From Clostridiales bacterium (GTDB lineage: Bacteria > Bacillota > Clostridia > Oscillospirales > CAG-272), in the NCBI GenBank assembly GCA_003522145.1, contig DPGD01000024.1:14646-78645 (forward strand): DNA of 64,000 nucleotides. Direction: 5' to 3'. Within the stretch, counting starts at the first letter, position 1. Every line of letters begins with the position of its first letter. The translations under genes were made by a program, and so were the position numbers. The notes beneath the pieces are model-generated. The model was given only the letters and a program-made list of their open reading frames with translations, made no database searches and was not told where the DNA came from. Positions 2,449 through 18,969 of this stretch are shown piece after piece.

Positions 2449-2745
2449 ATGACAACCAACAAACTTTTTGAAGGCGAACGGCTTACACTCACCCTGTCGG
2501 GAAGGCTCGACACCAATTCGTCCCCCGCACTGGAGGCGGAGCTGAAGCAATCCGTCGGTGGGGTGAAGGAGCTGATTTTTGATTTTTCCGGCGTAGAATA
2601 CATCTCCTCTGCGGGGCTTCGCATCCTGCTGGCGGCGCAGAAGGTGATGAACCGCCAGGGCAGCATGAAGCTGATCGGCGTAAACGACGACGTTATGGAA
2701 GTATTTGAAATCACCGGCTTTTCCGACATTTTGACCATCGAATAA
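2449..2745 (+). CDS. STAS-domain anti-sigma-factor antagonist (SpoIIAA/RsbV-like)
   Basis: 98 aa. It carries the conserved phospho-serine context DFSGVEYISSAGLRILL and the C-terminal VFEITGFSDIL motif. Confidence 0.9.
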   Translation: MTTNKLFEGERLTLTLSGRLDTNSSPALEAELKQSVGGVKELIFDFSGVEYISSAGLRILLAAQKVMNRQGSMKLIGVNDDVMEVFEITGFSDILTIE

Positions 2746-2755
2746 GCGAGGAATT

Positions 2756-5191: not shown

Positions 5192-5595
5192 AGGAATTGA
5201 CAATCCCCGCAACCGTTGAAAACATAGAAAAGGTAACCGAATTTGTAAACCGTCAGCTTCAGGAGATCCACTGCCCGAGCAAGGCGCAGATGCAGATTGA
5301 TATAGCGATTGACGAGCTTTTCGGCAACATCGCGCATTACGCATACAGGCCCGAAACAGGCCCCGCCACGGTGCGCGTGGAGGTAACGGAAGCGCCGATC
5401 TCCGTCATTGTCACCTTTATTGATCATGGGGTTCCCTACGATCCTCTGAAAAAGGACGATCCCGACATTACCCTGTCCGCAGACGAACGCGCCATTGGCG
5501 GGCTTGGCATTTTCATGGTCAAGAAAACCATGGACGAAATCACATACGAATATAAGGACGGTCAGAACATCCTTCGCATCCGAAAGGATCTTTGA
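5188..5595 (+). CDS. RsbW/SpoIIAB-like anti-sigma serine kinase (HATPase_c)
   Basis: 135 aa. The start overlaps the phosphatase stop (ATGA). N-box-like DELFGNIAHYAY, G-box-like GGLGIFMVKKTMDE. Confidence 0.85.
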   Translation: MKELTIPATVENIEKVTEFVNRQLQEIHCPSKAQMQIDIAIDELFGNIAHYAYRPETGPATVRVEVTEAPISVIVTFIDHGVPYDPLKKDDPDITLSADERAIGGLGIFMVKKTMDEITYEYKDGQNILRIRKDL

Positions 5596-5638
5596 AGCCG
5601 TTTGGAGCCGATTGAAATTTTATAAACGAGGTAAAGGT

Positions 5639-6115
5639 ATGAGCCAACCGATATTCCGCCAAAAAAGTATGGAAAAAATCTCTTCCCCGGAGCAGATGAA
5701 CGATTACATCCGCGTGTCAAACCCAAGTGTATGGATGATCCTTGCCGCCGTTATCGTACTGCTGGCAGGCGTATGCGTGTGGGGAATGTTCGGATGTCTT
5801 GACACCTCCTTTCAAACGGGCGGCGTCTGCCGGGACGGCTGTCTGACCGTTTATGTCAAGGAAGCCGACTTTGCCAAAATCAAAGGAAAAGCCATTCTTT
5901 CGGTTGACGGCTCGGAGCTTTCGCTGTCCGATCTGCCAGGCTCTCCCGTTCGGCTCGATGACAGTGCCGATCCGTATCTTCTTCATCTCATAGGCGCTTC
6001 GGCGGGCGATTGGGTATATGTTCTGACAGTCGATGCCAAAGACATGAAAAGCGGCACGTTCTCCGTTTCGGTCATTACCGAGCGCGTCAAGCCGCTCGAC
6101 TTTGTGCTGAACTGA
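5639..6115 (+). CDS. Short HlyD-like NHLM/NHLP-type bacteriocin secretion protein (158 aa)
   Basis: ATG at 5639 follows GAGGTAAAGGT. The N-terminal FRQKSMEKISSPEQMNDYIRVSNPSVWMIL + TM helix is the signature opening of HlyD-type adaptors of NHLM bacteriocin exporters (TIGR03794-like, from memory). The protein is far shorter than canonical adaptors. Confidence 0.6.
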   Translation: MSQPIFRQKSMEKISSPEQMNDYIRVSNPSVWMILAAVIVLLAGVCVWGMFGCLDTSFQTGGVCRDGCLTVYVKEADFAKIKGKAILSVDGSELSLSDLPGSPVRLDDSADPYLLHLIGASAGDWVYVLTVDAKDMKSGTFSVSVITERVKPLDFVLN

Positions 6116-6124
6116 GGTGCGGAC

Positions 6125-8305
6125 ATGAAGGCAACCAAAAAAATCAAAGCGCCCCTGACAAAGGGCGTGGCCAAAGTGCCCGTGATCATGCAGATGGAAG
6201 CGCTGGAATGCGGCGCCGCAAGCCTTGCCATGATCCTTGCCTATTATGAAAAATGGATCCCGCTGGAGCAGGTGCGTCTTGACTGCGGCGTTTCGCGCGA
6301 CGGCTCCAACGCAAGAAATCTTCTCCGGGCCGCCCGAAGCTACGGCCTTGCGGCCAAGGGCTATCGCTATGAACCCGAAACCCTGAAAAAAGAGGGGAAA
6401 TTCCCCTGCATTATCCATTGGAATTTCAATCATTTTGTGGTTCTTGACGGCTTCAAGGGCAACAAAGCGGTGTTAAACGATCCCGCAAAGGGCACCTATA
6501 CTGTCCCTATGAGCGTTTTTGACGACTCGTTTACAGGGGTATGCCTGTTTTTTGAGCCGGACGAAGGCTTTGTGCCGGAGGGCAAGCCGCAGTCCATGCT
6601 GAAATATGCGCAAAAACGGCTTGTCGGCGCAAGCACCGCCATTGTATTCGTCGTTCTGACCTCTATGATCACATCCCTGCTCGGCATGATCACGCCGGCG
6701 TTTTCGCGCATCTTTCTTGACCGACTGCTGACAAAAGAAAACCCGGAATGGCTCACGCCGTTTACGATTGCACTTGTGGGAATAAGCGTCATTCAGCTTA
6801 TCGTTGCATGGATCCAGGCCATCTATTCTCTCCGCATCAACGGAAAGCTCGCCATGGTGGGAAACACAACCTTTATGTGGAAAATCCTGCGCATGCCCAT
6901 GGAATTTTTTTCTCAGCGCATGGCAGGCGATCTTCAGGGCAGACAAGCGTCGAACGCCATGATAGCGGAGCGGCTGGTCAACATGTTTGCGCCGCTCGCG
7001 CTCAACGCCGCTATGATGGTGTTTTATCTCGTGGTCATGCTCCGATACAGCGTCGTACTGACGATGATAGGGCTTTTTTCGGTGATTGCCAACCTGGCCC
7101 TTTCGGGAATTATTTCAAGAAAGCGCATCAATATCACCCGCGTGCAAATGCGCGACGCCGGCAAGCTGGCGGGAACCACGGTCGCCGGCATAGAAATGAT
7201 TGAAACCATCAAGGCCAGCGGCGCCGAAAACGGCTTTTTTGAAAAATGGGCCGGCTATCAGGCAAGCGTCAATACAAATCAGGTTCGGTATCAGCGCACC
7301 AATCTGCTTCTTGAGCTACTGCCGGCTCTGATAAGCGCCCTTTGCGGAACGGCCGTGCTGATGACAGGCGTTTTCCTGGCGATGGAAGGTCTGTTTACCG
7401 TCGGTATGATCATGGCGTTTCAGGGCTTTCTTTCGTCGTTCGTTTCCCCCGCAATGTCGCTGATTTCCGCGGGGCAATCGCTCCAGGAAATGCGCACCGA
7501 TATGGAACGGATTGAGGATGTTATGAAATATCCCGCCGACGTGACCTTTGCCGAGCACGAGGAGGAGGCTGTCGAATACGACAAGCTGGCCGGAAACATC
7601 GAAATCAAAAATATAACCTTCGGGTATTCCCGCCTGGCGGAGCCTTTGATTCAGGATTTCAGCATGACCTTGACGCCGGGAAGCCGCATTGCTTTTGTCG
7701 GGCCGTCCGGGTGCGGAAAGTCCACCCTCTCAAAGCTCATATCCGGACTTTACAAGCCTTGGAGCGGCGAAATCCTGTTTGACGGCAAGCCTTTGTCGGA
7801 AATTGATCGCAGCGTGTTTACAGGCTCCCTTGCCGTGGTGGATCAGGATATTATCCTGTTTGAAGATACGATTGCCAACAACATTAAAATGTGGGATAAC
7901 TCCATTGAAGACTTTGAAATGATCATGGCGGCGCGCGACGCGCAGCTTCACGAGGATATTATGCAGCGCGAAGGCGGCTATCAGTACCGGCTGACCGAGG
8001 GCGGAAAGGATTTTTCCGGCGGGCAGAGACAGCGCATGGAGATTGCGCGCGTGCTCGCGCAGGATCCCACGATCATCCTTCTTGACGAGGCGACAAGTGC
8101 GCTGGACGCCAAAACCGAATACGACGTGGTGAAATCCATCAAAGACAGGGGCATCACCTGTATTGTGGTGGCGCACAGACTTTCCACCATACGCGATTGT
8201 GACGAGATTATTGTAATGGATCAGGGAAAAGTCATTGAGCGCGGAACACACGAGGAGCTGATGAAACAAGGCGGAGCTTATACTCAGCTCGTATCAAACG
8301 AGTAA
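6125..8305 (+). CDS. Bacteriocin ABC exporter with N-terminal C39 peptidase domain (NHLM ABC1-type)
   Basis: 726 aa. C39 motif QMEALECGAASLAMILAYY (catalytic Cys about aa 29) and HWNFNHFVVL; six-TM permease region; Walker A GPSGCGKST, signature FSGGQRQR, Walker B ILLDEATSALD. Confidence 0.92.
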   Translation: MKATKKIKAPLTKGVAKVPVIMQMEALECGAASLAMILAYYEKWIPLEQVRLDCGVSRDGSNARNLLRAARSYGLAAKGYRYEPETLKKEGKFPCIIHWNFNHFVVLDGFKGNKAVLNDPAKGTYTVPMSVFDDSFTGVCLFFEPDEGFVPEGKPQSMLKYAQKRLVGASTAIVFVVLTSMITSLLGMITPAFSRIFLDRLLTKENPEWLTPFTIALVGISVIQLIVAWIQAIYSLRINGKLAMVGNTTFMWKILRMPMEFFSQRMAGDLQGRQASNAMIAERLVNMFAPLALNAAMMVFYLVVMLRYSVVLTMIGLFSVIANLALSGIISRKRINITRVQMRDAGKLAGTTVAGIEMIETIKASGAENGFFEKWAGYQASVNTNQVRYQRTNLLLELLPALISALCGTAVLMTGVFLAMEGLFTVGMIMAFQGFLSSFVSPAMSLISAGQSLQEMRTDMERIEDVMKYPADVTFAEHEEEAVEYDKLAGNIEIKNITFGYSRLAEPLIQDFSMTLTPGSRIAFVGPSGCGKSTLSKLISGLYKPWSGEILFDGKPLSEIDRSVFTGSLAVVDQDIILFEDTIANNIKMWDNSIEDFEMIMAARDAQLHEDIMQREGGYQYRLTEGGKDFSGGQRQRMEIARVLAQDPTIILLDEATSALDAKTEYDVVKSIKDRGITCIVVAHRLSTIRDCDEIIVMDQGKVIERGTHEELMKQGGAYTQLVSNE

Positions 8306-8319
8306 GGGGGCGGATCGAT

Positions 8320-10521
8320 ATGGGTTGGTTTGACGAACAAATCAGAGATCGCAAGCATAACGACGACGAGGCTTTTGCCGAAGCCTTTGCCAATATGGCC
8401 TCTGCCATCACCGGCAAAAAAATCGAAGCCTCCTTAAACAACGACCGCGCTGTTACCAAAGACGCCATCGACGAAATTCTGAAATATTATCATGTAAAGA
8501 GCCGCGAGGTGCCGGACGAAATCGGCGACATAAACGAACAGCTTGAATATCTCATGCGCCCTTTCGGCATTATGCGACGCCCGATCCGGCTGGAGGACGG
8601 CTGGTATCGTGACGCAATCGGCGCCATGCTCGGCGTGCTGCGCGAAAGCGGAAGGGTGGTGGCGCTGATTCCCACAGGGCTTTCCGGGTACAGCTATTTT
8701 GATTACGAAGTCGGCAAACGAAGAAAAATCAATCGCAAAAATCAGCACCTGTTTGAAATGGAAGCCATTGCGTTTTACAAGCCCTTTCCGCTGAAAAAAA
8801 TCAGCCTGCCGTCGCTGGCCGCATATATCATGCGGACGCTTTCGGCCTCCGATTTTGTGATGATCGCCCTGGCCACGCTTGCTCTATCGCTGATCGGCAT
8901 GATTTCCCCGATGATCAGCAAGCTCCTGTTTGCTCGTGTGCTTCCGTCGGGAAGCATGCGCCTGCTTATCGCCATTACGGTCTTCTCCGTGTCCGTTTCG
9001 ATCAGCACGCTTCTCTTTTCCGCCGTGAAAAAGCTGATCATGGCCCGGATCGAAACCAAGCTGAACATATCGGTTGACGCAGCCGCCATGATGCGCGTCC
9101 TGTCGCTCCCGGCCGATTTCTTCAAGTCGTACAGCGCAGGCGAGCTTTCAAACCGTGTGTCTCAGGTCGGTGTGCTTTGCAAAATGCTGGCGTCCACCGT
9201 CCTGTCTACGGGACTGACTTCCCTTTTCTCGCTCCTATACCTATCGCAGATATTTGTCTACGCGCCGGCTCTTGTCGCTCCCGCGCTGATAATTATTCTT
9301 GTAACCGTTGTATTTTCCATCCTGTCGTCGCTCATTCAGATGAAAATAAGCATACGTCAGATGGAGCTTTCCGGCAAAGAAGACGGTATGACCTATGCTC
9401 TCATTTCGGGCATACAAAAGATTAAGCTGGCCGGCGCCGAAAAACGCGCCTTTGCAAGATGGGGCAATCTTTATGCCGAAAGCGCAAGGCTTACCTACAA
9501 TCCGCCGATGTTTATCAAGCTCAACACCGTCATCAGCCTTGCCATAAGCCTTGCGGGAACGATCATCATGTACGTCATGGCGGTAAAATCGGGCATTTCC
9601 GTGGCCGATTATTACGCCTTCGGCACGGCATACGGCATGGTGTCCGGCGCATTTACGGCGCTGGCCGGAATCGCGCTCACCGTGGCGCAGATAAAGCCCA
9701 TCCTCCATATGGTAAAACCGTTTTTTGATACCGCACCTGAAGTTTCAGACGGAAAACAGGTGATCACAAGGCTGTCCGGCGGAATTGAACTGAGCAATGT
9801 TTCGTTCCGATACAGCGAAAACATGCCCCTGGTGGTAGACGATATGTCGCTTAAAATACGTCCCGGACAATATGTTGCCATCGTCGGGAAAACGGGCTGC
9901 GGAAAGTCAACGCTTATGCGTCTGCTGCTCGGCTTTGAGCATCCGCAAAAAGGCGCCATCTATTATGACGGGAGAGATCTGGAACGAATTGACCTCCGCT
10001 CTCTGCGGCGTCGGATCGGTTCCGTTATGCAAAACGGGAAGCTGTTCCAGGGCGATATTTATTCCAATATCGTCATTTCCGCACCGTGGCTGTCCCCAAA
10101 CGAAGCATGGGAAGCGGCGGAGCTTGCGGGAATTGCCGAGGATATAAGAAAAATGCCCATGGGGATGAGCACGATCATCTCCGAAGGCTCGGGCGGCATC
10201 TCCGGCGGACAGCGCCAGCGGCTGATGATTGCTCGCGCCATCGCGCCAAAGCCCAGAATCCTTATGTTTGACGAGGCGACAAGCGCGCTGGACAATCTCA
10301 CGCAGAAAAAGATCTCCGAAGCGCTCGACTCATTGAAATGCACCAGAATCGTAATTGCGCACCGGCTTTCGACCATCAAGCAGTGCGACAGGATCCTCGT
10401 GCTGGATCACGGAAAGATCATCGAAGACGGCAAATATGACGAGCTGATTGCAAAGAACGGCTTCTTTGCGGAGCTTGTCGCTCGGCAGAGGCTTGACGGC
10501 GCTCCCAAAGCCGATTTCTAA
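8320..10521 (+). CDS. Second bacteriocin ABC exporter permease/ATPase without peptidase domain (NHLM ABC2-type)
   Basis: 733 aa. It has a non-peptidase N-terminal domain of about 150 aa, a TM region, Walker A GKTGCGKST, signature ISGGQRQR, and Walker B LMFDEATSALD. Confidence 0.9.
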   Translation: MGWFDEQIRDRKHNDDEAFAEAFANMASAITGKKIEASLNNDRAVTKDAIDEILKYYHVKSREVPDEIGDINEQLEYLMRPFGIMRRPIRLEDGWYRDAIGAMLGVLRESGRVVALIPTGLSGYSYFDYEVGKRRKINRKNQHLFEMEAIAFYKPFPLKKISLPSLAAYIMRTLSASDFVMIALATLALSLIGMISPMISKLLFARVLPSGSMRLLIAITVFSVSVSISTLLFSAVKKLIMARIETKLNISVDAAAMMRVLSLPADFFKSYSAGELSNRVSQVGVLCKMLASTVLSTGLTSLFSLLYLSQIFVYAPALVAPALIIILVTVVFSILSSLIQMKISIRQMELSGKEDGMTYALISGIQKIKLAGAEKRAFARWGNLYAESARLTYNPPMFIKLNTVISLAISLAGTIIMYVMAVKSGISVADYYAFGTAYGMVSGAFTALAGIALTVAQIKPILHMVKPFFDTAPEVSDGKQVITRLSGGIELSNVSFRYSENMPLVVDDMSLKIRPGQYVAIVGKTGCGKSTLMRLLLGFEHPQKGAIYYDGRDLERIDLRSLRRRIGSVMQNGKLFQGDIYSNIVISAPWLSPNEAWEAAELAGIAEDIRKMPMGMSTIISEGSGGISGGQRQRLMIARAIAPKPRILMFDEATSALDNLTQKKISEALDSLKCTRIVIAHRLSTIKQCDRILVLDHGKIIEDGKYDELIAKNGFFAELVARQRLDGAPKADF

Positions 10522-10606
10522 CGCAAAAAACTTCAAAAATTTTTTCAGATTTTTATTAGCCTTTTTTTCTTTTGGATCGTATAAATCAACAGAAGGAGGA
10601 AGTAAA

Positions 10607-10843
10607 GTGATAGGCATAAGAGCAGGGCAACAAGACAGATTGCCCGAAATCAGCGAAAAAACGCTTTCGGCGCTGTTTGATTATCAATTGTTTGAAAACG
10701 AGCCTTCGCTCCGAAAACTCATAGATGAAGTGGAAAACGAATACGGTGCCGAAATTTCAGAGGATGACCTCTCGCTTGTCAGTGCGGCGGGCGAAACGGA
10801 ATCTTCCGAAAAGCGCAAAGGCAAAATGGACGGTACTCTATGA
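10607..10843 (+). CDS. Small acidic protein of unknown function, translationally coupled to the sigma factor
   Basis: GTG at 10607 lies 7 nt after AGGAGGA (10594-10600). The 78-aa ORF's stop overlaps the sigma gene ATG (ATGA at 10840-10843). The segment YGAEISEDDLSLVSAAG resembles the Nif11/double-glycine leader end of the downstream precursors. Confidence 0.45.
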   Translation: MIGIRAGQQDRLPEISEKTLSALFDYQLFENEPSLRKLIDEVENEYGAEISEDDLSLVSAAGETESSEKRKGKMDGTL

Positions 10844-11325
10844 GCCTTGCAACGGAAAAGGAAGCGCTGTATACGGAATACCACGACAAGGTAAGCCATT
10901 ATGTTTTCTGCAGACTGCAAAACAAAAGCGACGCAGAAGACATTGTCAGCGAAATCTTCCTGAAAGTTTACGAACATTTCGATACATTTGACGCAAGTCT
11001 TGCTTCCGTTTCCACATGGATTTATACGATCACACGGAACACCGTAACGGATTATTTCAGGTCAAACCGCATCTATGCGGAATTGCCGGAGGAGTTATCG
11101 GACGGAGACGACATCGATTGCGTTGTTTTACAAAAAGAATCTCTTGCGGCGCTCGGAAAAGCGCTCGGCAAGCTTGACGAGCGCCGCTGCGCCCTTGTGA
11201 TTTTAAAGTATTACAAGAAAATGTCTCTGAAAGATATAGCGGCAAGAATGGGCATATCGTATGCCTATGTAAAAATTCTGCACAAAAGTGCGCTGAACAA
11301 ACTTAAAAATGATCTGAGCGGTTGA
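10840..11325 (+). CDS. Sigma-70 family (ECF-like, two-domain) RNA polymerase sigma factor
   Basis: 161 aa. Region 2: DAEDIVSEIFLKVYEHFDTFD...STWIYTITRNTVTDYFR. Region 4 HTH: MSLKDIAARMGISYAYVKILHKSALNKLK. Confidence 0.9.
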   Translation: MSLATEKEALYTEYHDKVSHYVFCRLQNKSDAEDIVSEIFLKVYEHFDTFDASLASVSTWIYTITRNTVTDYFRSNRIYAELPEELSDGDDIDCVVLQKESLAALGKALGKLDERRCALVILKYYKKMSLKDIAARMGISYAYVKILHKSALNKLKNDLSG

Positions 11326-11358
11326 GTTCAAGCATAATTATACAGGAGGACAAACAAC

Positions 11359-11544
11359 ATGAAAGAACAGAAGGAAAAAATCAAAACCGACAAAGCGGAG
11401 CTGAATGAAAACGAGCTTGAAAAAGTAGACGGCGGCATGAAAGTAATAATCATCGGCGACGGAAAGATGGGGATGTGCGAAAGATGCGGCATATATGCCT
11501 ATATCGTTGACGGGCTTTGCGAAAAATGCAGAAAAAATAAGTGA
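11359..11544 (+). CDS. Precursor peptide P1: short double-glycine leader + 35-aa core with CxxCG-x9-CxxC
   Basis: AGGAGG RBS. Leader MKEQKEKIKTDKAELNENELEKVDGG, core MKVIIIGDGKMGMCERCGIYAYIVDGLCEKCRKNK (4 Cys). Confidence 0.75.
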   Translation: MKEQKEKIKTDKAELNENELEKVDGGMKVIIIGDGKMGMCERCGIYAYIVDGLCEKCRKNK

Positions 11545-11568
11545 CCGAGAAGAATAAAATACACGGCT

Positions 11569-11841
11569 ATGGAAAAAAACAAAAAGCTTACAAAAGCAAA
11601 TGCGGACGAATTATCCGATAAAAAACTTGAAAATGTTTCGGGCGGCACCGAAATCACGGACAATGAGAGCATTAAGATAAACAACAATAATTTTGACACA
11701 AGTATAAATTTCAATAATTTTGACACGAGCATCAAAATAAACAACAATAATGTTGATATGAGCATAAAGCATAGCAACGATATGAATAAAAACATTCTGC
11801 TAAACAACGATTCAGATATGAAAATACTGAAAAACAACTGA
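11569..11841 (+). CDS. Precursor peptide P2: short double-glycine leader + 64-aa Asn-rich, Cys-free repeat core
   Basis: Leader MEKNKKLTKANADELSDKKLENVSGG. The core contains IKINNNNFDTSINFNNFDTSIKINNNNVDMSIKH and has AT-rich coding DNA. Confidence 0.6.
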   Translation: MEKNKKLTKANADELSDKKLENVSGGTEITDNESIKINNNNFDTSINFNNFDTSIKINNNNVDMSIKHSNDMNKNILLNNDSDMKILKNN

Positions 11842-11894
11842 AAAGCGCTGTTATCCCGCCCAAAAACTTTTATGAATAAGGAGACGACAAGAAA

Positions 11895-12311
11895 ATGAAC
11901 ACCGAACTTATCGCCAAGGCAAAGGAAGCGAAATCCCCCGAAGAACTGATGGCTCTTGCAAAAGAAAACGGCATGGAACTGACCGAAGAAGCAGCAAGTA
12001 CATATTTTAATCAGCTCAACCCAAAAATGGGCGAGCTTGCAGATGACGAGCTTGACAATGTTGCCGGCGGCGGCTGCTACTCAAGCGGCGGACGTCTAAA
12101 AACTACCTGCGGATATAAATGCAAGCATTATCAAGACGGGCCTTCAACTTATGGTGTAAAAGGCACCTGCTGCAGATGCAGATACTGGGGCGTCGATCCT
12201 AACGCTATAAGCGCTTCTCTTTGGACAACGGTTTTAGAGTTGATCGTAAAAGCGGCTGAGGCGGCTGAACCTCGTGAGTGCTACCATCCCGCCAACAGTA
12301 AAAAGGGCTGA
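11895..12311 (+). CDS. Precursor peptide P3: Nif11-type leader + ~78-aa core (7 Cys)
   Basis: Leader MNTELIAKAKEAKSPEELMALAKENGMELTEEAASTYFNQLNPKMGELADDELDNVAGGG, followed by CYSSGGRLKTTCGYKCKHYQDGPSTYGVKGTCCRCRYWG... Confidence 0.85.
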   Translation: MNTELIAKAKEAKSPEELMALAKENGMELTEEAASTYFNQLNPKMGELADDELDNVAGGGCYSSGGRLKTTCGYKCKHYQDGPSTYGVKGTCCRCRYWGVDPNAISASLWTTVLELIVKAAEAAEPRECYHPANSKKG

Positions 12312-12370
12312 TTGGTACAAAAATTTGCACATTTAATTAAACAAATAAAAAACATCAAAGGAGCATCGCA

Positions 12371-12610
12371 ATGAAAATGAACAATGAACTTATCGCAAAA
12401 GCAAAACAGGCAAAAAACCCCGAAGAGCTTCTGGCTCTTGCAAAAGAAAACGGCGTTGAACTGACGGAAGAAAGCGCAAAGGCGTATTTCAATCAGCTCA
12501 ATCCCAAAACAGGCGAGCTTGCCGACGACGAGCTTGACAATGTCGCCGGCGGCGGCTGCCAGCAGAACAACGGTCATCTTGATAAATACAAGGATTTCAA
12601 CAACATTTGA
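12371..12610 (+). CDS. Precursor peptide P4: Nif11-type leader + very short core (1 Cys)
   Basis: The leader is near-identical to P3/P5. The core after GG(G) is only CQQNNGHLDKYKDFNNI. Confidence 0.7.
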   Translation: MKMNNELIAKAKQAKNPEELLALAKENGVELTEESAKAYFNQLNPKTGELADDELDNVAGGGCQQNNGHLDKYKDFNNI

Positions 12611-12661
12611 TTTTTTCCCGCACAACAAACATCTGAAAAATTTATTATGATAGGAGTTTTT

Positions 12662-13045
12662 ATGAAAAAGGATCTTTTAGTGAAAGCAAAACAAGCAAAA
12701 ACCCCTGAAGAATTGATGTCCTTCGCAAAGGAAAACAACATTGAACTGACCGAAGAGAGCGCAAAGGCGTACTTTGAACAGCTCAACCCCAAAACGGGCG
12801 AGCTTGCAGATGACGAGCTTGACAATGTTGCCGGCGGCGGATGCCATAACGGCGGCAGGCTTGTCGTTTCCGTAATGCATTACTGCGATGAATGGCGTTG
12901 CAAGGATGACGGCTCCCAATGCGATATAGACGGCGTACTGGTAAACTGCAACACCTGCAAGGTCGCCGCATACTGCTTTTCGTGCAAGTACTGTACCTAC
13001 GAAAAAGGGCTCTGGCTCTGCAATAACCCCGTTAACATGAAATAA
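12662..13045 (+). CDS. Precursor peptide P5: Nif11-type leader + ~68-aa core (10 Cys), paralogue of P8
   Basis: ATG 12662 after TAGGAG. Core GCHNGGRLVVSVMHYCDEWRCKDDGSQCDIDGVLVNCNTCKVAAYCFSCKYCTYEKGLWLCNNPVNMK. Confidence 0.85.
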   Translation: MKKDLLVKAKQAKTPEELMSFAKENNIELTEESAKAYFEQLNPKTGELADDELDNVAGGGCHNGGRLVVSVMHYCDEWRCKDDGSQCDIDGVLVNCNTCKVAAYCFSCKYCTYEKGLWLCNNPVNMK

Positions 13046-13071
13046 ACCTACTCAAACAAGGAGATTTTACC

Positions 13072-13485
13072 ATGGACAATAAATTTACACCCGAACTTAT
13101 TGAAAAAGCCAAAGAAGCGAAAACCCCCGAAGAATTGTTCGCTCTTGCAAAAGAAAACGGCGTTGAACTGACCGAAGAGAGCGCAGCGTCGTATTTTGAC
13201 CGGCTGAACCCCAAAACAGGTGAGCTTTCCGACAGTGAGCTTGATAATGTATCCGGCGGCGGTTGCCTCAGTGATGACCCCTACGATACTTGTATGGCGG
13301 ACGGCTACTGTTTGTCCGACTATGTATGCAGCCGTTGCGGCACAAGGGGTATTGACCATAGCACCGGCGTGTTGCGTTGTTCCGGATGTTTTGCAAGCGA
13401 CCCCCGCTGTCGGAACTGTAGGAACAGTATTGGGGATAAGAGCGATTCGGTATTAAAATGCAAGGTTCATCCGAGACCCTGCTAA
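13072..13485 (+). CDS. Precursor peptide P6: Nif11-type leader + ~75-aa core (11 Cys)
   Basis: The core GCLSDDPYDTCMADGYCLSDYVCSRCGTRGIDHSTGVLRCSGCFASDPRCRNCRNSIGDKSDSVLKCKVHPRPC contains CxxCG-x12-CxxC. Confidence 0.85.
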   Translation: MDNKFTPELIEKAKEAKTPEELFALAKENGVELTEESAASYFDRLNPKTGELSDSELDNVSGGGCLSDDPYDTCMADGYCLSDYVCSRCGTRGIDHSTGVLRCSGCFASDPRCRNCRNSIGDKSDSVLKCKVHPRPC

Positions 13486-13519
13486 AGAATATTTTAAATT
13501 GTACAGAGAGGATTCAAAG

Positions 13520-13915
13520 ATGGAAATGAACAAAGAATTGCTTGCAAAAGCAAAAGAAATGAAAACTCCCGAAGAACTCATGGCTCTCGCAAAAGAAAGC
13601 GGCATTGAAATGACAAAAGAAAAAGCGGATGAGTATTTTAAGCAGCTTAGCACAAGCTCCGGCGAGATATCCGATGAGGAACTCGATAATGTTTCCGGCG
13701 GCTGTGGCGGCGGATATGTTGCCGGCAGACCCCATCCTCAATTCGGCGTTGGTGAATCCGTTCTTTATATTTGCGGCTGGTTGGGAGGAGACAGGATAAC
13801 CGCGTCCGCCAAGGTCGTGAAGAGAAGCTATGAAAACGACGCATGGTATTATACCCTGAAAATACATGACGGAAGTGAAATAACGCTAAGCGAGTCGTAT
13901 GTAATAAAGAGCTGA
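13520..13915 (+). CDS. Precursor peptide P7: Nif11-type leader + ~70-aa Cys-poor, beta-rich core (2 Cys)
   Basis: ATG 13520 was chosen by alignment with P4 (MEMNKELLAKAK vs MKMNNELIAKAK). Core CGGGYVAGRPHPQFGVGESVLYICGWLGGDRITASAKVVKRSYENDAWYYTLKIHDGSEITLSESYVIKS. Confidence 0.75.
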   Translation: MEMNKELLAKAKEMKTPEELMALAKESGIEMTKEKADEYFKQLSTSSGEISDEELDNVSGGCGGGYVAGRPHPQFGVGESVLYICGWLGGDRITASAKVVKRSYENDAWYYTLKIHDGSEITLSESYVIKS

Positions 13916-13961
13916 GAACAAGACAGCTTTTACAAAATAAATTTGAGGCAAGGAGATTTTT

Positions 13962-14351
13962 ATGCAAAACAATCAAGAGCTTTTCGCAAAAGCAAAGGAA
14001 GCAAAAACCCCCGAGGAGCTGTTGTCTCTCGCGAAAGAAAACGGCATTGAAATGACCGATGAGAGCGCAAACGCATATTTTGAAATCATACATCCGAAAG
14101 CCGGCGAGCTTGCAGACGACGAGCTTGACAATGTATCCGGCGGCGGATGTCGCAAGAGTGACGGAAGACTTGTAGTTTCCGCCGGCTATTCATGCGGATA
14201 TTGGGAATGCAACAAATGCGGAGTGAAATGGAAAAATGCCGGTTACGGTACTTTTAAGTGCAGTAGGTGCGGAAAATCATCACATTGCAATAACTGCTAC
14301 TGGTGCTCATATGAAAAAGGGCTTTGGCTTTGCAATAACAAGGACAAATGA
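13962..14351 (+). CDS. Precursor peptide P8: Nif11-type leader + ~67-aa core (10 Cys), paralogue of P5
   Basis: Core GCRKSDGRLVVSAGYSCGYWECNKCGVKWKNAGYGTFKCSRCGKSSHCNNCYWCSYEKGLWLCNNKDK. It shares GRLVVS and C-x2-C-x5-C-x2-C-x2-C-x9-C / YEKGLWLCNN with P5. Confidence 0.85.
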   Translation: MQNNQELFAKAKEAKTPEELLSLAKENGIEMTDESANAYFEIIHPKAGELADDELDNVSGGGCRKSDGRLVVSAGYSCGYWECNKCGVKWKNAGYGTFKCSRCGKSSHCNNCYWCSYEKGLWLCNNKDK

Positions 14352-14365
14352 ACTGATTCGGGTAT

Positions 14366-15751
14366 ATGCGTTATATTTTGAACCCCAATGTCGCCCTGCG
14401 TTCATGGCAGCTCGTCCCCTACGCCTATTACATAAAGGGTGAACGCAATGCGGCAGGACTGAAAAAAGAAGAATTTGAATTTCTGTCGGCGTGTGACGGA
14501 AAAACCGACCTGCCGACAGAAAACGAAAGCACTCTCGCACACGAACTCATTGAAAAAGGCTTTATCCATAAAGCGGCGAGCGGAGAAAACCTCTCCGATT
14601 GGAGCAAACCCCGCATTTTTGAAAACCGTTATTTTCCCGCCATGAATCTGATGATAACGGGCAAATGCAATTATAATTGTATTCATTGCTTCAATGCCGC
14701 GGACAATGCCCCGCTGATGAGCGAATGGACTATGGATGAAATGAATACGCTTCTCGATCAGGCGCGCGATTGCGGAATCAATGCGTTCACAATCACCGGC
14801 GGCGAGCCTATGCTGCACAAAAATTTCTTTGAAATTATTGAAGGCATCTATTCGCGCGGAATGTTCGTCGAAGAACTGAACACCAACGGCCATTTCATAA
14901 ACAAGCAAGCGCTTGCGTGCCTGAAAAGCATCGGCTGCGTCCCGCTCGTGAAAATATCCTTTGACGGCATCGGTTATCACGATTGGATGCGGAATCATAA
15001 GGGTGCCGAGCAAATTGCGCTGGATGCGATTTCTCACTGTATTGAAAACGGGTTTCCCGTCAAAGTGCAGACCAACATGAACCGCCAAAACTGCGACATA
15101 ATGCTGGAAACGGCCAAAAAGCTGGACGCGATGGGCGTAAGCGAAACGCGGATGATCCGCACGACCGAAGCTCCGCGTTGGGTACAGAATGCCGGCGACG
15201 CCTGCCTTACGTTTGAAGAATATTTTGATAAAGCGATCTGCCTCTGGCAGAAATACGCGGCGGAAGCTCATGATATGAATCTGACCGTATGGCAAGTGGG
15301 AACGCTTTATCCAAAATCAAAATTTTATACCCTTGCCGCCGTCAATTCCTGCACAGGCCAATATCGCCCAAGCGCCCCCGTGTGCAAAGGCAACCGCGGC
15401 ATGGTTGCGGTGGCGGCCAACGGAAATCTTTACCCCTGCCATCAAATGTCCGGCTATTACGAGCAGCACGGATATTTTCTCGGCAACATCAAACAAACTC
15501 CGCTGAAAGAGTTACTTTCGGGCGGAAAATACCTTGACGAAGTCTGCACCACGCTCGGAACACTGAAAGAAAGCAACCGCAAGTGCGGCAATTGTTCCTA
15601 TTTTGAACGCTGTAACGGCGGTTGTCGCGCTATAGCGTTGGCACTTACAGGCGACAGGCTCGGAATCGATCCCTCCAAGTGCCTTTTCTGGGAAAACGGC
15701 TACGCCGAAAAAATTGCGGCGGCTCTGCCGGATTACGAAACAAATATTTAA
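14366..15751 (+). CDS. Radical SAM/SPASM-domain peptide maturase
   Basis: 461 aa. CX3CX2C = CNYNCIHC (aa 101-108). SPASM-type auxiliary cluster motifs: CKGNRGMVAVAANGNLYPC (C-x12-G-x4-C) and CGNCSYFERCNGGC (CX2CX5CX3C). The ~95-aa N-terminal extension before the SAM cluster could be a leader-recognition (RRE/PqqD-like) domain. Confidence 0.92.
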   Translation: MRYILNPNVALRSWQLVPYAYYIKGERNAAGLKKEEFEFLSACDGKTDLPTENESTLAHELIEKGFIHKAASGENLSDWSKPRIFENRYFPAMNLMITGKCNYNCIHCFNAADNAPLMSEWTMDEMNTLLDQARDCGINAFTITGGEPMLHKNFFEIIEGIYSRGMFVEELNTNGHFINKQALACLKSIGCVPLVKISFDGIGYHDWMRNHKGAEQIALDAISHCIENGFPVKVQTNMNRQNCDIMLETAKKLDAMGVSETRMIRTTEAPRWVQNAGDACLTFEEYFDKAICLWQKYAAEAHDMNLTVWQVGTLYPKSKFYTLAAVNSCTGQYRPSAPVCKGNRGMVAVAANGNLYPCHQMSGYYEQHGYFLGNIKQTPLKELLSGGKYLDEVCTTLGTLKESNRKCGNCSYFERCNGGCRAIALALTGDRLGIDPSKCLFWENGYAEKIAAALPDYETNI

Positions 15752-15773
15752 TATAAAGAAAGGACTCACGAAC

Positions 15774-15980
15774 ATGGATAACAAAAACAACGAAACAAAG
15801 GAATACATCCTCACGGAAGAAGAACTGAAAGCCGTTTCCGGCGGCAAATCGTCACAAGTCCCCGGTATTAACTGTCCGCGTTGCGGCAAATTTATTCCGA
15901 CAACCATTACGGATTTACTGGTCCAACCTCGTATCAGATGCCCGTACTGTTTGTTGATACTGAATATCAATCAGAAATAA
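15774..15980 (+). CDS. Precursor peptide P9: short double-glycine leader + 44-aa core with CxxCG-x17-CxxC
   Basis: ATG 15774 (the track ORF opens earlier, at 15714, overlapping the rSAM gene). Leader MDNKNNETKEYILTEEELKAVSGG, core KSSQVPGINCPRCGKFIPTTITDLLVQPRIRCPYCLLILNINQK. Confidence 0.7.
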   Translation: MDNKNNETKEYILTEEELKAVSGGKSSQVPGINCPRCGKFIPTTITDLLVQPRIRCPYCLLILNINQK

Positions 15981-16054
15981 TCTCATATCGGAGCAGCGTC
16001 AACCGACGCGCGGCATAAACCGGAAAAATTCCGGTGCCGTCATAAAACGCAAAA

Positions 16055-16106
16055 CAAGCGATATCTGTCTATCTGAAAGGATAAACTGATATCGCTTGCT
16101 TTTTTA
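16055..16106 (+). terminator. Rho-independent-type terminator closing the RiPP operon
   Basis: 11-bp stem CAAGCGATATC / GATATCGCTTG (22-nt loop) followed by CTTTTTT. Confidence 0.55.
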
Positions 16107-16137
16107 ATATTAAAATTTTGATAAGCGCTCCGGCGCG

Positions 16138-16461
16138 TCATTTCAATGATTCACGGACATAATACGCCTGTATTTCGCTTTCGGTAACAAGAACGGATTC
16201 CTGACGGAAAAAGGCGCAAAAATCTTTTGCAATATCGTTCACAACGGCTTTTTCAACGTCAATGAGAGTAAGCACAAGACTTGTTTCTCTGGCATATTCC
16301 CCGTTTTCATAAATGTATCCGCCTTCCTGTATGCCGAACGAAAACGGCACCTTGTATGAATGACAAACATTGCGAAGCACCCTGATGTACTTCTCGCTTT
16401 CAAACAGCTGTGTTTTCGTGGTTGAATCGTGCAGCCCTATATAAATTTCCGATTTGACCAT
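16138..16461 (-). CDS. Conserved-looking small hypothetical protein
   Basis: 107 aa from ATG 16461, preceded by GGAGGAGGAAGC. MVKSEIYIGLHDSTTKTQLFESEKYIRVLRNVCHSY... I cannot place the family confidently. Confidence 0.55.
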   Translation of the reverse strand: MVKSEIYIGLHDSTTKTQLFESEKYIRVLRNVCHSYKVPFSFGIQEGGYIYENGEYARETSLVLTLIDVEKAVVNDIAKDFCAFFRQESVLVTESEIQAYYVRESLK

Positions 16462-16508
16462 GCTTCCTCCTCCGCTTCCGCGCACTTTTCCGATGCTTCA
16501 TTATACCA

Positions 16509-16537
16509 TAAATCCACGCAGTTTTCAATCTCAATCA
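16509..16537 (-). promoter_or_regulatory. Sigma-A-type promoter TTGAAA-17-TATAAT (extended TG)
   Basis: On the - strand: TTGAAA (16537-16532), 17-nt spacer ending in TGG, TATAAT (16514-16509). It sits about 45 nt upstream of ATG 16461. Confidence 0.5.
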
Positions 16538-16579
16538 CGCAATTTGCGGATGAAGTGCCGACGACAGGGTATATAACCG

Positions 16580-16609
16580 AAAAAAGCACTTGCGGCGCAA
16601 GTGCTTTTT
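16580..16609. terminator. Bidirectional terminator hairpin
   Basis: AAAAA-AGCACTTGC-GGC-GCAAGTGCT-TTTTT. It is placed just downstream of the - strand phage-remnant genes and upstream of the 16509-16537 promoter. Confidence 0.65.
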
Positions 16610-16654
16610 GTGTGTCTACAGGTTAATTTAGATGCCAAATTTGTGTTATCCAAT

Positions 16655-17050
16655 TTAGATGCAGTGCGAAGAAACACTTCTCTCTTGGTGAAACAAGGGC
16701 TTGCAAGTGACCGCTATCTTCCGGGCTTGCAGAGCCATGCTTGTAAACGAGCTTATGTATGCCGTTTCGGTTTCAAAACCGATGTATTGTCTGCCGGTGA
16801 TGGTGAAATCCGCACCGAGCAGACTGCGGATGATTCTGTTCTTGTCACGCAGATAGTTACCTTTGCTGTAAAGAGACACACGTGCCTCCTGCACATCATA
16901 GGAAAGAGCATCGTCTGCATTGAGGGCAAAGCGGTCGGACATAGGCACCGCCACGATATAGGTATCCGGGGCGGTGTCGGTAAACACACCCGTTTCAAGC
17001 GGAATGCCGAGGGGTGTGAGAGTTTGTTTGATGTCTGCAAGGATATTCAT
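16655..17050 (-). CDS. Phage head-tail joining/tail-completion-like protein (family uncertain)
   Basis: 131 aa, 4-nt overlap with the upstream phage gene. Its position after the gp10-like gene is typical of HK97/SPP1-like head-tail modules. The C-terminal ~30 aa look atypical, so it may be junction-derived. Confidence 0.45.
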   Translation of the reverse strand: MNILADIKQTLTPLGIPLETGVFTDTAPDTYIVAVPMSDRFALNADDALSYDVQEARVSLYSKGNYLRDKNRIIRSLLGADFTITGRQYIGFETETAYISSFTSMALQARKIAVTCKPLFHQERSVSSHCI

Positions 17051-17478
17051 AGCTTATCGATCTCCTCGTCAAGTTTTTGCACCATTGCCGAGATACAGGC
17101 AGATTTTGTGCTTGTTTTTGCGGGTTTCAAAAAAGGCTTTGCAGGCTGACCATGCTTGCCGTATTCGAGAATATTTGCAAGCATTGCATTGCTTTTCCCA
17201 TCGGTGCGGTTTTCTGCAAAGCCGATCTTGACATTAAAGTCACCGTTTCTGTCTTGCAAAGCCCCGGAAGTACCGAGAGCAGACAAAAGCTACCCGGTGC
17301 TTCGGCTTTCCTCCTTGAGTTCTTTGCCGATAACTGCGGTAAGGTTGGAGCGAACTTTGTCTTCCACGATTTCCGCACCCGCTTCAAGCACTCTCGGCAA
17401 GATTTCATCGGTTTTTGCACCAAGGCGGGAGACCTTCAAAAGAAACTCCTCCGGCATTTTAATCGTTGCCTTTGCCAC
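17047..17478 (-). pseudogene. HK97 gp10-family phage protein split by an in-frame TAG
   Basis: ORFs 17290-17478 (MAKATIKMPEEFLLKVSRLGAKTDEILPRVLEAGAEIVEDKVRSNL...) and 17047-17286 (...DRNGDFNVKIGFAENRTDGKSNAMLANILEYGKHGQPAKPFLKPA) are in the same frame. They are separated only by the stop at 17290-17292. Confidence 0.7.
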
Positions 17479-17812
17479 TTGCCGTCACCTCCTTACAAAG
17501 CACTTCGATATACATTCCGCGACCTTTCACATTTTCGACCGAGGTGATTTCAAGCCGCTGTCCTGCATCAATAATAAGCATTTTGGTGGTAATCTCCACC
17601 GAAGGGGTGGCACGGAAGCGGAAAAGGTCGGTAGCCGTTGTAAAGGCGGCTCTGCTTGCCCATTTTTTGCTTCCGTGCCGTCCTTCTCGATAGGCGCGTA
17701 CTCTTGCCACCTCTTTATCCATTTGGACAGAAAAGCCCTCGTTGTCCTTCTCGGTGGTAGGCAGTACGATTTGAAGGAAGTGGTCTTGCCGTCCAAGGCT
17801 CATACCGACCAC
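17459..17812 (-). CDS. Phage head-tail adaptor / head-closure protein
   Basis: 117 aa. The pattern RQDHFLQIVLPTTEKDNEGFSVQ...VARVRAYRE...RFRATPSVEITTKMLIIDAGQRLEITSVENVKGRGMYIEV is typical of the SPP1 gp16/HK97 gp9 adaptor family. Confidence 0.7.
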   Translation of the reverse strand: MVGMSLGRQDHFLQIVLPTTEKDNEGFSVQMDKEVARVRAYREGRHGSKKWASRAAFTTATDLFRFRATPSVEITTKMLIIDAGQRLEITSVENVKGRGMYIEVLCKEVTASGKGND

Positions 17813-18120
17813 CTCCTATCCAAGCGGAGCAGAAGGTTTACGGTGTTCCACACTTGTGTTGCCGCCTGTACATTGTCTGCGAAAAAGCCACCCGTCGAGC
17901 CGTCTCTGCTCTCATAAAAGTGAGAGGCAAGCATAATGACCGCTTGCTCTGTGGTCGCAGGCATGGTGTTTTCCGCATAGTAGTTTTCAGGGATGTGCTG
18001 ATAACTCTCGGCATAGGAAACGGCAGCGGTAATAAAGGACTGCAACAGCGTGTCGTCAGCCGAGTGTTCAAGAATTAGGTTCTGCTTGACTTTTGTAAGC
18101 AGGTCATTCATCACCGCCAC
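17800..18120 (-). CDS. Phage gp6-like head-tail connector protein
   Basis: 106 aa. LTKVKQNLILEHSADDTLLQSFITAAVSYAESY...AVIMLASHFYESR matches the gp6-like/DNA-packaging connector pattern. Confidence 0.7.
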   Translation of the reverse strand: MAVMNDLLTKVKQNLILEHSADDTLLQSFITAAVSYAESYQHIPENYYAENTMPATTEQAVIMLASHFYESRDGSTGGFFADNVQAATQVWNTVNLLLRLDRRWSV

Positions 18121-18129
18121 CTCCCGTCA

Positions 18130-18720
18130 TCAGGCAGTTGCCTTCATTTTGAGAAGCTGTACCGCTTCGGGCAGAATGTGCTTGCCGTCCACGCGCTCCT
18201 TGGCAAGGAAGCCGACCATACCGTTGCCTGCAAAGAGTTCCTTGAGTTCTGCAAAGGAACGAGTGCCACGGTCACCGATGTTGTAGTAGGAAAAGTCACC
18301 GAATGCGACAGCCGCACCACCGGCAGCAGGCACCGGGAAGTAAGGAGAGGTGTAAATTTTGTATCCAAGGCAAGTGCCGGGTTCCCCTGCCTGAAGGGGC
18401 GGCTGCCAGAGATACTGGCCGTTCTTGTCCTTGAGTTTGCGAAGAGCAGCCACACACTTGTCATTGGTGAGGAATGCGGCATTCTTGCGGTAAGGACGCT
18501 TGAGGGAGTAGATGAGGTCGATAATCTCATCTGCGGTTACCTCGGATTCGGATGCAGTAACAACACCGACCTGTGCGCCACCGTTGGCGGCAAGCAGACC
18601 GAGGGGCTGACCGACACCCGTGCCGTTGATGAATGCATCCTCCTCGGCATTGGCGAGTGCCTTACCGAACTGCTTGAGGATGTAGCTTTCAAGATTGAAG
18701 GCATTGTCATAAAGTGTCAT
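18130..18720 (-). pseudogene. HK97-family major capsid protein, C-terminal half only
   Basis: 196 aa containing EEDAFINGTGVGQPLGLL...YRKNAAFLTNDKCVAALRKLKDKNGQYLWQP...GYKIYTSPYFP. Full-length capsids are about twice this size. The N-terminal half, plus the protease, portal and terminase genes, are absent. Confidence 0.8.
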
Positions 18721-18944
18721 TTCTTTGATATGATTCTTTTTATCTTCTCGTGAACACTCTCTGAAGCATCCTTGTCAAAGAATGTTCGCACGATATATTT
18801 GGTTTCGTCAATCTCCTTGACAAAGTCAAGCGGCTCGGGATAAAGGCTTGCGGCATAACGCTTTAAGCGATCTTCCTTTGTCATACGAGATTGTGCGATT
18901 ACTATTTCGTCTATCAGTTTGTGAATATCTTGATTCTCGTCCAT
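18717..18944 (-). CDS. Small TnpW-like protein (tentative)
   Basis: 75 aa. The C-terminal EIDETKYIVRTFFDKDASESVHEKIKRIISKK resembles the IGxTTYxVxxxFxxxxxETxxDKIxRLI motif I recall for TnpW-type proteins of clostridial transposons. Its stop overlaps the truncated capsid start (ATGA). Confidence 0.35.
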   Translation of the reverse strand: MDENQDIHKLIDEIVIAQSRMTKEDRLKRYAASLYPEPLDFVKEIDETKYIVRTFFDKDASESVHEKIKRIISKK

Positions 18945-18969
18945 TGGTTTTCCTTTCTTTTTTGAGTTT

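Follow-up and report, generated by a model that had tools for sequence, protein, structure and literature searches.

An asparagine-rich, cysteine-free double-glycine peptide in a radical SAM locus: probable unmodified cargo of the adjacent C39 exporter

Why should a locus that encodes Cys-rich precursors, a peptide exporter and a radical SAM/SPASM enzyme also carry a gene for a peptide that is free of Cys and rich in Asn? The question is raised by positions 11569-11841 of the window (the whole stretch of DNA that was analysed, 64 kb in length). In the original prediction, the product of this gene, here called P2, was described as a Cys-free double-glycine-leader peptide adjoining a C39 peptidase ABC exporter within a 'Cys-targeting operon', and several roles were offered for it: an unmodified secreted peptide that co-opts the exporter, a substrate of Cys-independent radical SAM chemistry, a signal, a recently acquired insertion or a self-assembling peptide. 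The description of the peptide and its exporter is accurate, and translation of the plus-strand open reading frame (ORF) gives exactly the protein that was quoted. The features on which the argument depends are the following, and fetched loci used for comparison are designated by L numbers.

2449-2745: STAS protein, upstream of P2
2756-5191: SpoIIE-type phosphatase with a 5TM sensor domain, upstream of P2
5188-5595: RsbW-like kinase, upstream of P2
5639-6115, plus strand: 158-aa protein whose match is confined to the N-terminal 51 residues of the HlyD-like NHLP secretion protein (TIGR03794 partial, 35.4 bits)
6125-8305, plus strand: C39 peptidase/ABC exporter (Peptidase_C39, 2.4e-34; TIGR03796, 939.7 against a cut-off of 853.3)
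8320-10521, plus strand: second ABC exporter subunit, without a peptidase domain (TIGR03797, 736.7 against a cut-off of 709.4)
10556-10586, plus strand: two-block ECF-type promoter TTAGCC-N16-CGTATAAAT, followed by the p78 ribosome-binding site and start
10607-10843, plus strand: p78, a 78-aa ORF whose end overlaps the start of the sigma gene (ATGA); dN/dS 0.15-0.51
10840-11325, plus strand: ECF-type sigma-70 family factor, 161 aa (Pfam Sigma70_r2 and Sigma70_r4; TIGR02937, 95.9 against a cut-off of 42.9)
11359-11544, plus strand: P1, a double-glycine-leader peptide with a CxxC...CxxC core, directly upstream of P2
11569-11841, plus strand: P2, a 90-aa precursor gene (ORF and translation, 88 homologue clusters, dN/dS 0.23 in this frame only)
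11569-11646, 11647-11838 and 11839-11841, plus strand: P2 leader, core and stop codon, with cleavage predicted after Gly26
11667-11768, plus strand: imperfect 27/33-nt tandem repeats coding for [IF]NN(NN)[FV]D[TM]SI[KN] units (Tandem Repeats Finder and a repeat search)
11895-14351, plus strand: six precursors with Nif11-like leaders and cores of 18-79 aa holding 1-11 Cys, the other cargo
14366-15751, plus strand: radical SAM/SPASM enzyme (Pfam Radical_SAM and SPASM)
15774-15980, plus strand: Plast, a double-glycine-leader peptide with a CPRCG...CPYC core, whose relatives lie 3' of stand-alone P2-like genes

The transporter genes are of the TIGR03796/TIGR03797/TIGR03794 type, the trio that was defined for NHLP/Nif11 systems by Haft et al. 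2010 (PMC2887384), and the six Nif11-like precursors score 27-37 bits on TIGR03798. The radical SAM/SPASM enzyme reaches no curated family cut-off; the label 'Cys-targeting' is therefore an assumption of the original prediction, resting on the Cys-rich cores. Between P2 and the next precursor no terminator-like site was found. The p78 product has no family match; it carries a leader-like stretch (ISEDDLSLVSAAGE) and is present in every locus that has the sigma gene, and our guess is that it may regulate the sigma factor. In the more distant loci L044, L045, L048 and L053, the p78-sigma pair sits 3' of the radical SAM gene and not 5' of the precursors.

The surroundings of the locus deserve a brief description of their own. 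The module of STAS protein, SpoIIE-type phosphatase and RsbW-like kinase (2449-5595) is also found ahead of the exporter genes in the majority of related loci with enough upstream sequence, which suggests partner-switching control of the system, despite the ECF type of the locus sigma factor. On the other flank, short minus-strand ORFs at about 16600-18950 match genes of L001-L010 that have phage head-tail connector, HK97 gp10-like and truncated capsid Pfam hits, so that the region just downstream looks like a degraded prophage remnant of strain-variable gene content. An Rfam scan of 5000-17000 gave nothing relevant, and a plasmid BLAST matched nothing.

P2 is a conserved protein-coding gene

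The P2 leader (MEKNKKLTKANADELSDKKLENVSGG) is 26 aa long and ends in G25 and G26, with V23 at -4, L20 at -7 and L15 at -12; it has the length (15-30 aa), the GG end and the hydrophobic residues at -4/-7/-12 by which double-glycine leaders are recognized. The 64-aa core contains 19 Asn (29.7%), 9 Ile, 7 Asp, 6 Lys and 0 Cys, and its 9 acidic residues set against 6 Lys give a net charge of -3. Tandem Repeats Finder reports 3.3 copies of an imperfect 33-nt repeat at 11667-11768, where a second repeat search returned copies spaced at 27/33 nt, and at the protein level the imperfect unit is 9-11 aa long. The local GC content of 0.28-0.32 is low compared with about 0.45-0.55 in the neighbouring genes, and the P2 orthologues are all similarly AT-rich (GC 0.29-0.38); this results from the codons for Asn, Lys, Ile, Asp and Phe. 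P2 of the window is not preceded by a Shine-Dalgarno sequence (ataaaatacacggctATG), a detail absent from the original prediction, nor are its closest relatives, and in these its translation may therefore be weak. A good Shine-Dalgarno sequence precedes the more distant P2-like genes of L021, L043, L011 and L017.

An open frame of 90 codons would be expected by chance, at the base composition of P2, with p ~5e-4, and one arose in 5 of 20,000 shuffles. A protein search yielded 88 clusters of homologues at 49-93% identity, and the exact P2 sequence is found in 878 blocks of a contig collection, the ten places listed being metagenome assemblies and MAGs; the titles of the species sample indicate bacteria of the gut and rumen. 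Over 11 orthologues the dN/dS ratio (Nei-Gojobori) is 0.12-0.59 with a median of 0.23, P1 and p78 being similar, and in a six-frame test the P2 frame on the plus strand gave 0.23 versus 0.46-1.25 in the other five. The antisense ORF of 112 aa (11499-11837, minus strand) was rejected as a coding candidate: its dN/dS is 0.46, stop codons break its frame in L029 and L030, and it is a by-product of the Asn/Lys/Ile codon usage.

All members of the family have in common the leader, a highly conserved first unit (SIKINNNNFDTSI), the repeat units and the C-terminus NSDIKILKNN. The number of [IF]NN(NN)[FV]D[TM]SI[KN] units varies from about 2 to 6, and length variants differ by the in-frame gain or loss of whole 9- or 11-residue units. 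Across 50 aligned homologues V23, G25 and G26 are invariant, with S16 and L20 nearly so; F42, D43, T44 and one Asp per repeat are likewise nearly invariant in the alignment. Cys occurs in 14 of the 86 family cores, at positions that are not conserved. We conclude that P2 is a genuine conserved protein-coding gene, and the conservation check that had been proposed for it came out in its favour, the ORF being kept in related loci where the gene is present.

The family is nevertheless a narrow one, new in itself and yet of a known kind, namely, the double-glycine-leader cargo of a peptide exporter. A profile of the P2 core, run against 1.84 billion cluster representatives (50% identity), found 15 clusters at E <=0.001, of which ~10 are true members; the matches included proteins of 398, 456, 177, 2514 and 1622 aa, and the first three of these, on inspection, proved to be unrelated simple repeats. 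No model in Pfam or NCBIfam is matched above its curated cut-off. The best NCBIfam model, CTB family bacteriocin (NF038167/PF28158), scores 22.1 bits versus a cut-off of 32 over residues 11-53, and precomputed Pfam matches are graded only 'faint' or 'weak'; bacteriocin_sig (TIGR01847) scores 15.3 bits versus a cut-off of 15.7, and the Nif11/NHLP leader models TIGR03798 and TIGR03793 have no match in P2. A profile search of solved structures returned no sequence relative. AlphaFold gave a pLDDT of 46 both for the full precursor (50 sequences) and for the core alone (12 sequences), neither run being confident, and modelled the core with only short strands, located on the repeats; a sub-threshold Beta_helix match (E 0.0045) was seen in one homologue. 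No account of the P2 peptide family, or of this type of locus, was found in the literature searched. Three traits set the core itself apart: its richness in Asn, its negative charge and its variable number of repeats.

Distribution of P2 and of the other cargo

The relation between P2 and the radical SAM enzyme was examined in a sample anchored on the enzyme, which comprised 32 loci from different species in a one-genome-per-species collection; 21 of the 32 are complete from the second ABC gene through to the enzyme and are informative. Of these 21, 7 have a P2-like gene (L023, L025, L027, L029, L030, L040 and, in a divergent form, L043) and 14 have none. The distribution of P2 is thus independent of the radical SAM gene, and P2 is an accessory, dispensable member of the locus. 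The sigma factor is encoded in all 7 P2-positive loci, and all 7 fall among the 8 loci that have a P1-type gene, with P1 directly upstream of P2 (hypergeometric p ~7e-5, tabulated and calculated by hand and ignoring shared ancestry). Sigma factor and promoter are kept without P2 in seven loci (L031, L033, L034, L035, L037, L038 and L042).

One of the absences has left a scar. L026 is missing p78, the sigma gene, P1 and P2 and is in other respects near-identical to L027; the end of its ABC gene is joined to the last six P2 codons (ILKNN-stop) and to the normal P2-N1 spacer, and the junction (8215-8326; compare L027 and window positions 11800-11897) runs through a TCG(G)ATATAAAAAT microhomology, two copies of which bounded the deleted block. 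The Nif11-type precursors, the radical SAM gene and Plast are all intact in L026. It follows from this scar that the p78-sigma-P1-P2 module was ancestral there and was then deleted. The proposal that P2 is a recently acquired insertion does not survive this comparison, as P2 is ancestral to a clade of loci and its absence from L026 is a deletion. In L025 the P1 orthologue (7408-7578) no longer has its four Cys and seems to carry a frameshift (KRVIISTERREYAKDAERMP...), and the adjoining P2-like gene is intact.

P2-like genes also occur as stand-alone cassettes outside the locus. In L017/18 and L055-57, which represent two related, syntenic lineages, a P2-like gene precedes a gene for a Plast-like peptide, next to genes of purine biosynthesis; in L011-13 the P2-like gene is followed by a truncated Plast-like remnant (...GWRCPYCLSKL), and the cassette is decayed. 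Neither an exporter gene nor a related radical SAM gene is found on the sequenced contigs of L017/18, L055-57 and L011-13, and export there would therefore need a gene elsewhere in the genome. The one radical SAM gene in the vicinity, 7 kb from the P2-like gene of L017, is unrelated (26% identity, core domain only). The P2-like genes outside the locus are under purifying selection, with dN/dS of 0.13-0.40 versus other orthologues.

In 22 loci, made up of the window and 21 more, all double-glycine ORFs lying between the ABC genes and the enzyme were tabulated. The original prediction placed a Cys-free core inside a Cys-targeting operon. That the P2 core has 0 Cys is correct, but the anomaly is weaker than stated, since other cargo cores hold 0-2 Cys: there are Cys-free 13-aa cores in L031 and L034, cores with 1-2 Cys in L044 and, across the 22 loci, cores of 70 aa with 2 Cys and of 15-25 aa with 1 Cys. 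The Nif11-leader precursor at 13520-13915, with orthologues in L023, L025, L029, L030 and L040, carries just 2 Cys in its 70-aa core (CGGGY...WYYTLKIHDGSEI...), which resembles a small folded domain more than it does a Cys-rich peptide. In L021 (10001-10537), a P2-like gene and the CxxC peptide gene next to it have nearly identical leaders (MNESEKKSKKAENEL.ENEL..VSGG), a resemblance that indicates exchange of leaders between cargo genes.

The promoter element and the sigma factor

The TAGCC-N16-CGTATAAAT element has a single match in the 64-kb window, upstream of p78, and is conserved across 19 regions, with a spacer that is fixed at 16 nt and variable in sequence. The same element lies 5' of the p78-sigma pair in 16 further loci, 5' of P1 in L052 (a locus that lacks the sigma gene) and 5' of the P2-like genes that stand alone in L011, L017 and L055. 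A match to the relaxed pattern inside L024 falls within a coding gene and is due to chance. A -10 element of the CGTA type is characteristic of ECF sigma factors (Bacillus SigW is an example), and autoregulation is usual among these factors; for these two reasons the element may be taken as the promoter of the locus sigma factor, and P2 probably belongs to the regulon of that factor. As such, the ECF-type promoter would mark regulon members even outside the locus. The sigma gene beside the P2-like gene of L011 was considered as its cognate regulator and rejected, since its identity over region 2 is no more than 35%; it probably has no relationship to the sigma factor of the window. The two regions that had been put forward for reporter fusions differ in value: 10521-10606 indeed holds the conserved promoter, whereas 11326-11358 amounts to no more than a 33-nt spacer that includes a ribosome-binding site.

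In the stand-alone cassettes a second conserved element, TTCGACC(R)TATGTTATACTA, is found ~30-70 nt 5' of the ECF-type promoter (L017 9915-9940; L011 8742-8765; L055 ~5155-5185). It resembles an extended -10 element (TGTTATACT) and is absent from the window.

Weighing the explanations and comparison with known systems

We favour, with moderate confidence, the reading in which P2, expressed together with the sigma module, is unmodified double-glycine cargo of the adjacent C39 exporter and the radical SAM enzyme does not act on it; among the roles first suggested, it is the unmodified secreted peptide co-opting the exporter that the comparative data favour. The p78-sigma-P1-P2 module would be transcribed from the promoter at 10556-10586, probably recognized by the co-encoded sigma factor; the C39 domain of the NHLP-type exporter (6125-8305) would cut P2 after Gly25-Gly26, and the 64-aa anionic, Asn-rich repeat peptide would then be exported. 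P2 is always accompanied by a 4-Cys CxxC...CxxC double-glycine peptide, P1 in the full loci and a Plast-like peptide in the stand-alone cassettes. Its role would be extracellular, and we would guess that it acts together with this partner in competition or cell-cell interaction. Cleavage, export, sigma dependence and function are all proposed here from sequence, and the unmodified state is deduced purely from the distribution of the gene. Since the P2 core is anionic and polar, unlike the known pore-forming class II bacteriocins, an extracellular activity is likewise a guess.

Several other explanations have to be set against this one. P2 might be a Cys-free substrate of the radical SAM/SPASM enzyme, which would install a C-C or ether cross-link, or an epimerisation, on the F-D-T or D-x-S-I-K units. 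It lies in the same operon-like array as the other precursors with no terminator-like site before the next of them, the near-invariance of F42, D43, T44 and one Asp per repeat would suit such a modification, and the chemistry of the enzyme is open because it falls outside the curated families. The short leader is by itself no bar to recognition either, as P1 and Plast share this leader type and could be radical SAM substrates. Yet 14 of the 21 enzyme loci do without P2, selected P2-like genes persist in cassettes that have no related enzyme on the contig, the Nif11-like leader of the six main precursors is missing from P2, and most repeats have V, S, I or P where the aromatic residue would be, which leaves no conserved repeated aromatic motif for cross-linking; we regard the Cys-independent substrate of the original prediction as unlikely. 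Improbable to the same degree is a secreted signal that feeds back on the sigma factor and induces the locus. Such a role would fit the position of P2 directly 3' of the p78-sigma pair behind the same conserved promoter, which the stand-alone copies retain, as well as the presence of the sigma factor in 7 of 7 P2-positive full loci, and in the lantibiotics microbisporicin and planosporicin the exported peptide is known to exert feed-forward control through an ECF sigma factor. However, the seven loci with sigma factor and promoter that lack P2 imply that it is not an obligatory inducer, no P2-specific membrane sensor was identified, the sigma factor neighbouring the L011 gene (35% identical over region 2) is probably unrelated, and a 64-aa repeat peptide of variable copy number is unlike the known double-glycine pheromones.

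It is quite unlikely, in our estimation, that the core self-assembles into a beta-rich form (a solenoid with an Asn ladder, or an amyloid-like assembly, possibly metal-dependent) with a structural or sequestering role outside the cell. The 30% Asn content, the strand-like I-K-I and I-N-F segments between Asn runs, the variable repeat number, the short strands that AlphaFold places only on the repeats and the sub-threshold Beta_helix match of one homologue (E 0.0045) all speak for it; a pLDDT of 46 amounts to no confident model, the solved structures hold no sequence relative, the large-protein matches are unrelated simple repeats, and the repeats do not fit the GGxGxDxUx consensus of RTX proteins. 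Also unlikely is a more far-reaching reading, in which P2-type peptides would define a class of their own, that of exported peptides with Asn-rich repeats, and would form one half of a two-peptide extracellular system, the other half being the CxxC...CxxC double-glycine peptides (P1 or Plast). P2 might then serve them as a self-assembling or metal-dependent scaffold, with the pair under a dedicated ECF sigma regulon, or else it might bear an undescribed modification of its conserved Asp, Thr and Asn units. Next to no probability attaches to a spurious ORF or a decaying, recent AT-rich insertion, in spite of the low GC content, the lack of a Shine-Dalgarno sequence before the window copy and the absence of the gene from most related loci. 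Purifying selection acts in the P2 frame only, the leader motif and both ends of the core are conserved in 88 clusters, length variants differ by whole repeats in frame, and the absence from L026 is a secondary deletion; this last explanation is refuted.

The immediate significance of P2 is modest. The locus is common to many gut-like metagenome assemblies, and its repertoire of exported peptides is unusually large and varied; for the mining of such loci the lesson is that a peptide near a maturase need not be its substrate. Two by-products are useful in their own right, namely, the regulon-marking promoter and the recurrent pairing of P2 with a 4-Cys peptide, which makes a testable pair.

Against the established classes of modified and repeat-containing peptides, P2 was compared in turn and each assignment was rejected. 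A sactipeptide or ranthipeptide precursor is at odds with 0 Cys in the core and with the lack of obligate co-occurrence with the radical SAM maturase; for a graspetide precursor, no ATP-grasp ligase or other modifying enzyme was found among the annotated genes within 8-10 kb in any fetched locus; for a triceptide (three-residue cyclophane) precursor, Phe is kept in the first repeat only, the others having V, S, I or P. The ~60-aa leader domain of Nif11/NHLP-leader RiPP precursors is missing from P2, and the RTX reading fails on the repeat consensus given above.

Closer parallels are found among exported peptides that carry double-glycine leaders. Class II bacteriocins and pheromones with C39 exporters resemble P2 in their short GG leader, with hydrophobic residues at -4/-7/-12, and in the exporter gene adjoining, and two-peptide bacteriocins resemble it in having a second double-glycine peptide gene adjacent. 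Class II bacteriocins differ in that the P2 core is anionic, polar and 30% Asn, with repeats of variable number, instead of cationic and amphipathic or hydrophobic, and in that no immunity gene was identified for P2. The match to the CTB family bacteriocin model (NF038167), which is below the cut-off, lies mainly on the leader, runs on into the beginning of the core and leaves the repeat core uncovered. Microcin E492 has a double-glycine leader, is similar in size to P2, is exported by a C39 ABC system and forms amyloid; it has no sequence similarity to P2, being Gly/Ser-rich, pore-forming and from Enterobacteria, and aggregation of P2 by this likeness would be a conjecture. The NHLP/Nif11 export systems (PMC2887384) differ from the P2 locus in that P2 is without a Nif11 or NHLP leader domain, and in that the locus has a radical SAM/SPASM enzyme and an ECF sigma factor, not a cyclodehydratase or LanM. 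They share with it TIGR03796, TIGR03797 and part of TIGR03794, along with many diverse precursors whose leaders end in the same Gly-Gly.
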